Shown here: in pieces, positions 23,973 to 25,268 of the stretch
Numbering within the stretch: the first letter of the stretch is position 1
Layout: every line of letters begins with the position of its first letter
Source: Escherichia phage vB_Eco_T-01
Sequence record: PQ438391.1
Length of the DNA stretch: 64,000 nt
Reading direction: 5' to 3' (one strand)
Made by a program: the position numbers and the translations under genes
Notes under the pieces: generated by a model
Seen by the model: the letters and a program-made list of their open reading frames with translations, nothing else
Databases searched by the model: none
Told to the model about the DNA's origin: nothing

Positions 23973-25001
23973 ATGTCATCAATACCTTGGATTGATAATG
24001 AGTTTGCATACCGTGCATTAGCTCATTTACCTAAATTCACACAAGTAAATAATAGTTCAACTTTTAAATTACGGTTTAGATGCCCTGTTTGTGGAGATTC
24101 AAAAACCGACCAAAATAAAGCCCGTGGATGGTATTATGGCGATAATAATGAAGGAAATATTCACTGTTATAACTGTAACTATCATGCACCAATCGGAATA
24201 TATTTAAAGGAGTTTGAACCCGATTTATATCGTGAGTATATCTTTGAAATAAGAAAAGAAAAAGGTAAAAGTCGTCCAGTAGAAAAACCTAAAGAACTTC
24301 CTAAACAACCTGAGAAGAAAATAATTAAATCTCTTCCGTCATGTGTTCGATTAGATAAACTGGCGGAAGACCATCCAATTATAAAATATGTAAAAGCTCG
24401 TTGTATTCCAAAGGATAAATGGAAATATCTTTGGTTTACAACCGAATGGCCTAAATTAGTTAATAGCATAGCACCGGGAACATACAAAAAGGAAATTTCT
24501 GAGCCTCGTCTTGTTATTCCAATTTATAATGCTAATGGAAAAGCCGAGTCTTTTCAAGGACGTGCATTAAAGAAAGATGCTCCCCAAAAATATATCACCA
24601 TCAAAGCTTATCCTGAGGCAACAAAAATATATGGAGTCGAACGAGTTAAAGATGGTGATGTATATGTTCTAGAAGGACCTATAGATTCACTTTTTATTGA
24701 AAATGGTATAGCTATTACGGGTGGTCAATTAGACCTAGAAGTTGTTCCATTTAAAGATAGACGAGTGTGGGTTTTAGATAATGAACCTCGTCATCCTGAC
24801 ACTATCAAACGAATGACTAAATTAGTTGATGCAGGAGAAAGGGTTATGTTTTGGGATAAATCTCCCTGGAAATCAAAAGATGTTAATGATATGATTAGAA
24901 AGGAAGGTGCAACCCCTGAACAAATTATGGAATATATGAAAAATAATATTGCCCAGGGGTTAATGGCTAAAATGCGGTTATCTAAATATGCTAAGATTTA
25001 A
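23973..25001 (+). CDS. 61: DNA primase gp61
   Basis: 342-aa ORF; N-terminal zinc-binding CPVCGDS ... CYNC; recognised as T4 gp61. Confidence 0.95.
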   Translation: MSSIPWIDNEFAYRALAHLPKFTQVNNSSTFKLRFRCPVCGDSKTDQNKARGWYYGDNNEGNIHCYNCNYHAPIGIYLKEFEPDLYREYIFEIRKEKGKSRPVEKPKELPKQPEKKIIKSLPSCVRLDKLAEDHPIIKYVKARCIPKDKWKYLWFTTEWPKLVNSIAPGTYKKEISEPRLVIPIYNANGKAESFQGRALKKDAPQKYITIKAYPEATKIYGVERVKDGDVYVLEGPIDSLFIENGIAITGGQLDLEVVPFKDRRVWVLDNEPRHPDTIKRMTKLVDAGERVMFWDKSPWKSKDVNDMIRKEGATPEQIMEYMKNNIAQGLMAKMRLSKYAKI

Positions 25002-25210
25002 ATCAACCCAACTAAAGCAAATGCTAAATCTACAAATGTATCAAGAGTAACTACTGGAATATTAATACCATGTGCAATTGCAACAGGTGATAAAATAAAG
25101 TTCCAGAGTAAAATTCCTACCATAGCAGAAATAGTAAAAGCTATACGTTTTTATTACCTTTTATGGCATTAACAAGTGCCATTAATTTTTGTACCATATG
25201 TCCTCCTTAT

Positions 25211-25234
25211 TGCTTTATATATTTATTGTATAAT
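25211..25234 (+). promoter_or_regulatory. MotA-dependent middle promoter for gene 56 (TGCTTTA ... TATAAT)
   Basis: 11-bp gap. Confidence 0.5.
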
Positions 25235-25268
25235 TAATCTACTAACCCATGAATTGAAAGGAAAAATA

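Follow-up and report, generated by a model that had tools for sequence, protein, structure and literature searches.

A disrupted allele of the uncharacterised gene dam.1 at the dam-less junction of primase and dCTPase genes in a T4-like phage

The closest described counterpart of the locus reported here is the 61-dam-56-segF-soc region of phage T4 (X01416; NC_000866, 15.3-19.0 kb), which also holds oriA and the promoter P(M) 16.53. In the RefSeq record NC_000866 the 309-bp gap between dam and the primase gene 61 carries no annotated gene, yet an intact small gene lies within it. The same gene is named dam.1 in the annotation of T4T (HM137666, protein ADJ39749), a single-source T4 sequence (PMC2993671), and appears as a "hypothetical protein" in hundreds of Tequatrovirus records. 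We analysed a stretch of 64,000 nucleotides (hereafter the window) from Escherichia phage vB_Eco_T-01 (PQ438391.1), a T4-like phage of the genus Tequatrovirus whose best match over 12 kb is vB_Eco_TB37 (97%) and for which no identical record was found in the phage collection. The window shares with T4 the order and orientation of 61, dam.1, 56 and soc, as well as the homologous MotA box and -10 element before gene 56 and the late promoter before soc, but it has neither the 780-bp dam gene with its promoter region nor segF. Its dam.1 resembles that of T4 in position, overlapping stop codons, Shine-Dalgarno sequence and ATAAATA core, and differs from it by a 1-nt deletion after codon 16 that splits the reading frame in two.

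A first-pass annotation of this sequence had described two separate antisense micro-open reading frames (ORFs) between genes 61 and 56. They are real coding sequence, as it had supposed, but their separateness did not survive comparison with relatives. In the closest relatives the interval 24998..25197 of the minus strand is occupied by a single 201-nt ORF of 66 codons (MVQKLMALVNAIKGNKKRIAFTISAMVGILLWNFILSPVAIAHGINIPVVTLDTFVDLAFALVGLI), whereas the window, aligned to Bas39, T4 and TB37, has 200 nt there. The 18-aa ORF (25141..25197, minus strand) comprises dam.1 codons 1-16 followed by two out-of-frame codons and TAG, and matches positions 1-16 of the PHROG 2024 profile. The 41-aa ORF (24998..25123, minus strand) comprises codons 26-66 in the native frame, begins at the internal Met26 without a Shine-Dalgarno sequence of its own and matches profile positions 25-65 (E = 2.2e-19). 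Since the two match collinear parts of one family and are one base short of a single 66-aa ORF, they are not independent. Restoring the missing base gives a protein that matches PHROG 2024 over its full length (E = 1.4e-31) and is 98% identical to the T4 dam.1 product. Alignments to relatives place the deletion at 25147..25153, where AAT AAG AAA CGT or AAT AAA AAG CGT of the relatives has become AAT AAA AAC GTA TAG; the lost base is a G on the dam.1 strand (C on the plus strand), that is one G:C pair, and its loss creates the heptamer U AAA AAC. The two ORFs are the N- and C-terminal parts of a single 66-aa dam.1 broken by this deletion, and we hold this with high confidence, a judgement that applies jointly to the split gene, the expression proposed for it below and the commonness of the dam-less junction. 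An intact member of PHROG 2024 would be a single uninterrupted ORF of about 63-69 codons; the window copy agrees with the family in sequence and in position and departs from it in the broken frame, and is thus a disrupted allele rather than an intact member.

The same deletion was found in two other sequences. Among 497 phage records covering the site dam.1 is intact in 496, and the sole exception is phage a48 (OQ067375; allele a48_149), which differs from the window at 30 of 2084 positions surrounding the locus, including two synonymous changes in the 41-codon part. The Logan contig SRR21357777_14503 (L019), from an independent read set, carries it as well. Both encode 18-aa and 41-aa products identical to those of the window and have the same compact junction, although their genomes are distinct from it. 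That the deletion is instead a sequencing or assembly artefact, with an intact 66-aa gene in the real phage, is unlikely. In its favour, the missing base adjoins a 5-base A/T homopolymer, where a systematic sequencing error is possible, and nearly all relatives are intact. On some sequencing platforms, moreover, the glucosyl-hydroxymethylcytosine of T-even DNA can cause C to be miscalled systematically. An artefact would however have had to arise identically in two independently produced sequences with differing flanking single-nucleotide polymorphisms, and the window assembly is not generally error-prone, as over 41 kb aligned to TB37 the dam.1 deletion is the only isolated 1-nt indel within coding sequence, the others (23474, 26454 and 39198) being intergenic. 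Because of its presence in a48 and in the independent contig, and because of the quality of the assembly, a real allele is more likely than an error, and the deletion probably represents a genuine circulating allele. A further Logan contig (L018) was set aside for its many broken genes.

Could the two ORFs nevertheless be micro-genes in their own right, for instance a leader peptide and a hydrophobic toxin-like peptide lying under an antisense RNA from the 3' end of gene 61, in the style of a type I toxin-antitoxin system? The 41-aa product is indeed very hydrophobic (grand average of hydropathy, 1.75), gene 61 transcripts are expected to run antisense through its ORF up to a hairpin at 25163-25192, and this ORF is annotated as a gene in a48. 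The collinearity with one family profile already contradicts such an arrangement, and it is very improbable also in view of its rarity, since of 497 other phage records a single one shows it, of the missing ribosome-binding site of the 41-aa ORF and of the diverged homologs in phages F2, TH57 and Q7622, which are all single ORFs of 65-69 aa. As a candidate type I system the locus was rejected: there is no Shine-Dalgarno sequence, the 41-aa ORF is a piece of a longer conserved protein and the only predicted antisense RNA is the 3' end of gene 61.

dam.1 itself is a widespread gene. Translated searches (tblastn) found its protein in 696 phage records, in every case adjoining the primase gene, and at 90% identity or more in 502 records. 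Its layout, on the opposite strand between primase and dCTPase and convergent with the primase gene, is common to Bas39, T4T, TB37, F2, TH57 and Q7622. Homologs that are 50-55% identical occur in "Tequatrovirus efftwo" (phage F2) and in Gaprivervirus (TH57), and one that is 33-38% identical occupies the same convergent position in Kanagawavirus (Q7622). Across these five lineages 12 columns are invariant, W32, N33, F34, P38, G44 and P48 included, and an SD-like GGAG or GGAGG precedes the start codon in all of them. Nonsynonymous divergence between genera (pN 0.32-0.46) is lower than synonymous divergence (pS 0.62-0.75, with synonymous sites saturated), and within Tequatrovirus dN/dS is 0.07-0.22. 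dam.1 is a real coding gene under purifying selection (dN/dS about 0.1-0.3). The opposite view, in which the minus-strand ORF is no gene and the conservation comes from terminator, promoter and origin elements of the region, could draw on the terminator-like hairpin and the two promoters that overlap the dam.1 5' end and on the silence of the T4 RefSeq record about the ORF. It is already contradicted by amino-acid identity that persists across genera despite saturated synonymous sites, and we regard it as extremely improbable: an open ORF of similar length, with a Shine-Dalgarno sequence and start codon, persists in lineages with DNA only about 50-60% similar, and in F2 and TH57 the ORF is retained though the hairpin is not evident on reading their sequences.

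As a coding gene dam.1 has been annotated before but is uncharacterised, PHROG 2024 being classed as of unknown function. When 1.84 billion representative proteins were searched with the profile, the only matches were known phage clusters and two long repeat proteins (P0032 and P0036), which were judged from their sequences to be compositional false positives and rejected as homologs; a scan of IMG/VR added only 5 loci, all near-identical. Any assignment of function has several null results to contend with. No family in Pfam or NCBIfam matched the protein, a fold search against viral models recovered family members (orthologs) alone and no characterised protein, and literature searches for dam.1 found nothing on a transcript, protein or phenotype.

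The junction around dam.1 is compact. Gene 61 (DNA primase, 342 aa) occupies 23973..25001 of the plus strand; besides its place in the ORF list it is annotated as DNA primase in all relatives and gives a weak DNAG_N match. Gene 56 (dCTPase/dUTPase, 172 aa) occupies 25269..25787 of the same strand, with a dCTP pyrophosphatase annotation in relatives and a weak dUTPase_2 match. Its start is ATG 25269 and not the GTG at 25176 given by the mechanical ORF list, the resulting length of 519 nt agreeing with phage Bas39. The 267-bp gap claimed between the two genes is correct and corresponds to 25002..25268, and the 41-aa and 18-aa ORFs, the AAGGAGG and the overlap of stop codons described by the first-pass annotation were all found in place. 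The dam.1 TAA (24998-25000) overlaps the gene 61 TAA (24999-25001) inside the palindrome TTTAAA.

The absence of dam and segF noted earlier at this junction proved right, and extends to the whole window: with T4 Dam and T4 SegF as tblastn queries nothing better than E = 3 was obtained in the 64 kb, and the complete 166,495-bp genome of TB37 gave no match to either protein (none at E <= 1 for Dam). The lack of dam is not peculiar to this phage. A 77-nt junction-specific query found the compact block at 95% identity or more in 322 phage records, as against 182 records with a T4-type Dam at 90% identity or more. A figure of 295 records obtained at 80% coverage or more is unusable as a count of compact junctions, as pieces up to 900 bp apart get joined. 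The 322 compact and 182 dam-bearing records together roughly equal the 502 records with Dam.1 at the identity cut-off given above; the two junction types are therefore complementary, and the dam-less junction is the majority state in Tequatrovirus. The observation made on the window was accurate and the thing observed ordinary, namely a disrupted copy of a gene that had been annotated before, though not characterised, within the junction type that occurs most often. The outgroups F2, TH57 and Q7622 are likewise compact and have no dam at the 61-56 junction, and for this reason the insertion of dam in the T4/T2 lineage is the likelier direction; the dam-less junction is probably ancestral. dam.1 is no replacement for dam, as it is present in the dam-61 gap of T4. 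T-even Dam is non-essential. The second missing gene, segF, encodes a mobile homing endonuclease of the free-standing kind, with soc/56 as its place of insertion (PMC2988022), and its absence is hence expected in most relatives. By tblastn no SegF homolog lies between gene 56 and soc in the window; the place of T4 segF is taken by two unrelated small ORFs of 64 and 57 aa (25787..26151, plus strand; ORF list and profile matches to PHROG 5782 and PHROG 9053), followed by soc (26191..26427; ORF list).

Some Tequatrovirus dam cassettes contain an extra ORF of 186 aa whose stop codon overlaps the dam start (841..1401, minus strand, in IMG/VR uncultivated virus genome 2974787500, our L010; Escherichia phage Shinka, MZ502379). 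Its product gives a sub-threshold match to the DpnII restriction endonuclease (E = 0.0045) and is named a "putative restriction endonuclease" in Shinka. Judging from these sequences, dam and the 186-aa ORF may form a phage-borne GATC methylase/nuclease pair.

The region upstream of dam.1 suggests when the gene would be expressed. From -13 to -6 the late promoter of T4 reads TATAAATA, with a first T (-13) that is poorly conserved in T4-like phages (PMC1524935). In all five lineages a motif of the form (N)ATAAATA, with the core NATAAATA, lies 16-22 nt upstream of the dam.1 ATG between diverged flanks: AATAAATA in the window and in F2, GATAAATA in T4, CATAAATA in TH57 and TATAAATA in Q7622. The window copy (25220..25227, minus strand), a putative late promoter on the strength of this conservation, is 22 nt ahead of the ATG, and the Shine-Dalgarno sequence AAGGAGG (25202..25208, minus strand), recognised by reading the sequence, ends 4 nt before it. 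The window has far fewer ATAAATA sites than expected (15, where 38.6±6.2 were predicted), as selection against spurious late promoters could explain. Five of these sites are 18-34 nt before a Shine-Dalgarno sequence and start codon, those of soc, 34, 36, holin t and dam.1; the control genes soc, 34 and 36 are preceded by TATAAATA, and holin t by the same variant AATAAATA as dam.1. From the conserved position of the motif near the start codon, its depletion in the window and its presence at the late-gene controls we infer late expression of dam.1 from a gp55-dependent promoter, with transcription starting at about 25214 (minus strand) in the window and near position 17722 (plus strand) of NC_000866 in T4. 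The first base of the motif tells against this, not being T in four of the five lineages.

Differential RNA sequencing of T4 is reported in a preprint to have located 150 start sites on the phage genome, of which 22 are antisense (bioRxiv 10.1101/2024.04.04.588121). T4 omics data mapped to the RefSeq annotation would miss dam.1, a conserved, probably late gene for a predicted small membrane protein. A terminator scan of the minus strand of the window found no candidate site in the 1.6 kb that follow dam.1 (23400..25000). Late dam.1 transcripts would therefore continue into the primase gene and be antisense to it.

On the plus strand the same short interval appears to serve the neighbouring genes. 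A MotA box TGCTTTA (25211-25217), an 11-nt spacer and a -10 element TATAAT (25229-25234) stand ahead of gene 56, and the homologous T4 element is annotated as the mot-box and -10 of P(M) 16.53 upstream of gene 56/69. According to notes in T4 records the transcript from this promoter is the oriA primer. The reading of the sequence and the annotated T4 element together point to 25211..25234 as a putative middle promoter from which gene 56 would be transcribed with the help of MotA. The candidate late promoter of dam.1 falls, in dam-less phages, within the spacer of this MotA promoter and on the opposite strand, whereas in T4 the dam cassette parts dam.1 from the gene 56 promoter and the sequence upstream of dam.1 differs (GATAAATATTAATTT). 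Inside the 5' coding part of dam.1, at codons 6-12, a plus-strand hairpin (25163..25192; ATGGCATT-AACA-AGTGCCAT, then TAATTTTTGT) was detected by the terminator scan and is present in the minimum free energy fold. A "terminator" is annotated at the same place in Yersinia phages fPS-90 and fPS-65 and in SA21RB, and the hairpin with its T-run looks like the gene 61 terminator. In dam-less phages a putative late promoter, a MotA middle promoter (in T4 the promoter of the oriA primer) and a terminator would thus be contained in about 70 bp on both strands, a compact form of bidirectional temporal control.

Our proposal for the working of the junction is as follows. Late in infection, RNA polymerase with gp55 would initiate at AATAAATA (25227-25220, minus strand) and produce a dam.1 mRNA with a short leader and a strong Shine-Dalgarno site, from which Dam.1 would be made and inserted in the inner membrane in an orientation that leaves its N-terminus cytoplasmic. 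Gene 61 transcripts would stop at the hairpin and T-run embedded in the dam.1 5' coding region, and gene 56 would be driven by the MotA-type middle promoter, which occupies some of the same DNA as the late promoter. In the window allele translation from the strong start would halt after 18 codons, leaving the other 41 codons open but without a ribosome-binding site; dam and segF would never have been inserted in the lineage of this phage.

With the 41-codon remainder lacking a ribosome-binding site, the window allele of dam.1 is most likely null or strongly hypomorphic. Its persistence in at least three distinct sequences weighs against this and may mean that it is not fully null. Two routes to residual function can be envisaged. 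A -1 slip on U AAA AAC (25153-25147) would yield a 66-aa protein, either wild type or K17N; alternatively, ribosomes stopping at the UAG could restart at AUG 25123, 17 nt downstream, and produce a 41-aa membrane fragment. In favour of the former, the A-run is the only stretch escaping stops in both frames, as TAA TAA directly precedes it in the -1 frame and TAG follows two codons later in the 0 frame. The latter is helped by an AUG within about 6 codons of the stop, low-frequency reinitiation in a seven-codon window having been described in T4 (PMC2988022). Both substitutions between window and a48 in the 41-codon part are synonymous, as retained function would predict, but two changes are too few to demonstrate selection. 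The heptamer is imperfect, with U rather than A in the first position and only five As, there is no downstream stimulatory structure (fold z = -0.83), the nearest SD-like AAGG is too close upstream for a dnaX-type site, and no Shine-Dalgarno sequence precedes AUG 25123. Disruptions of dam.1 at other positions (P0029, P0030, P0031 and L021) fit simple decay, and we consider a partly functional allele unlikely. Judged as a programmed -1 frameshift site the heptamer was rejected, for its imperfect sequence, the z of -0.83 and the lack of a Shine-Dalgarno sequence at 10-14 nt.

The occurrence of these natural disrupted alleles suggests that dam.1 is dispensable under some conditions, and the frameshift and deletion alleles amount to ready-made dam.1 mutants. 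In L021, a scaffold of the European Nucleotide Archive (ENA; HAYD20-1_..._4341), a deletion of about 51 nt at about 330..420 has taken away the beginning of dam.1 (start codon and first 16 codons) along with the terminator hairpin. Another ENA scaffold (L023, 582 nt) fuses the 3' half of dam.1 and the final 27 primase codons to unrelated flanks; it is probably chimeric and was left unused.

The predicted structure of Dam.1 is that of a small membrane protein. AlphaFold2 gave a model with a mean predicted local distance difference test score (pLDDT) of 79.6 and three helices, an amphipathic one at residues 2-12, one of 27 residues at 16-42 and a short one at 52-63. The protein is predicted to have a basic amphipathic N-terminus, one long transmembrane helix bearing the invariant WNF...P...G and a short, acidic hydrophobic C-terminal helix. 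Hydropathy and charge analysis counted five K/R ahead of the long helix and two acidic residues behind it, and suggests a membrane orientation with the N-terminus in the cytoplasm. Residues 45-66 are however hydrophobic, and could form a second membrane span and a hairpin topology instead.

Dam.1 is probably a dispensable envelope or lysis-related accessory factor. It has small size and a hydrophobic helix in common with holins, antiholins and T4 Imm, and one dam.1 ortholog bears the UniProt name "Holin", a label for which we did not find an experimental basis. Of the features of a holin the predicted transmembrane helix is there, and a charged C-terminus, an endolysin neighbour and similarity to known holins are all absent. 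Dam.1 shows no sequence or fold similarity to characterised holins, antiholins or Imm, and the window already encodes a T4-type holin t of 218 aa (start codon about 50541, minus strand). A more elaborate proposal makes Dam.1 an overlooked late inner-membrane protein with a role in the timing or inhibition of lysis or in late superinfection exclusion, the frameshift allele being kept as a low-expression variant by slippage or by reinitiation at Met26; this we regard as distinctly improbable.

Elsewhere in the window lie a homolog of gene 42, alpha-gt and the gene of a second glycosyltransferase. The hydroxymethylcytosine/glucosylation pathway, the dominant DNA modification in T-even phages, is therefore encoded. 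At the position of T4 beta-glucosyltransferase, beside the canonical alpha-gt, it has a 282-aa protein of the TAGT glycosyltransferase family (18086..18934, plus strand; E = 2.2e-10), and the pattern of glucosylation may therefore differ from that of T4. Between alpha-gt (4899..6101) and gene 47 (6879..) lies a 207-aa ORF with a weak GIY-YIG match (6278..6901, plus strand), and the interval 6284-6879 has no counterpart in TB37; from its sequence this ORF looks like an insertion of a free-standing Seg-type homing endonuclease different from segF. A last segment without a megablast match in TB37, 51721..53563, falls by position in the distal long-tail-fibre gene (TB37_206) and would therefore be a host-range variable segment.

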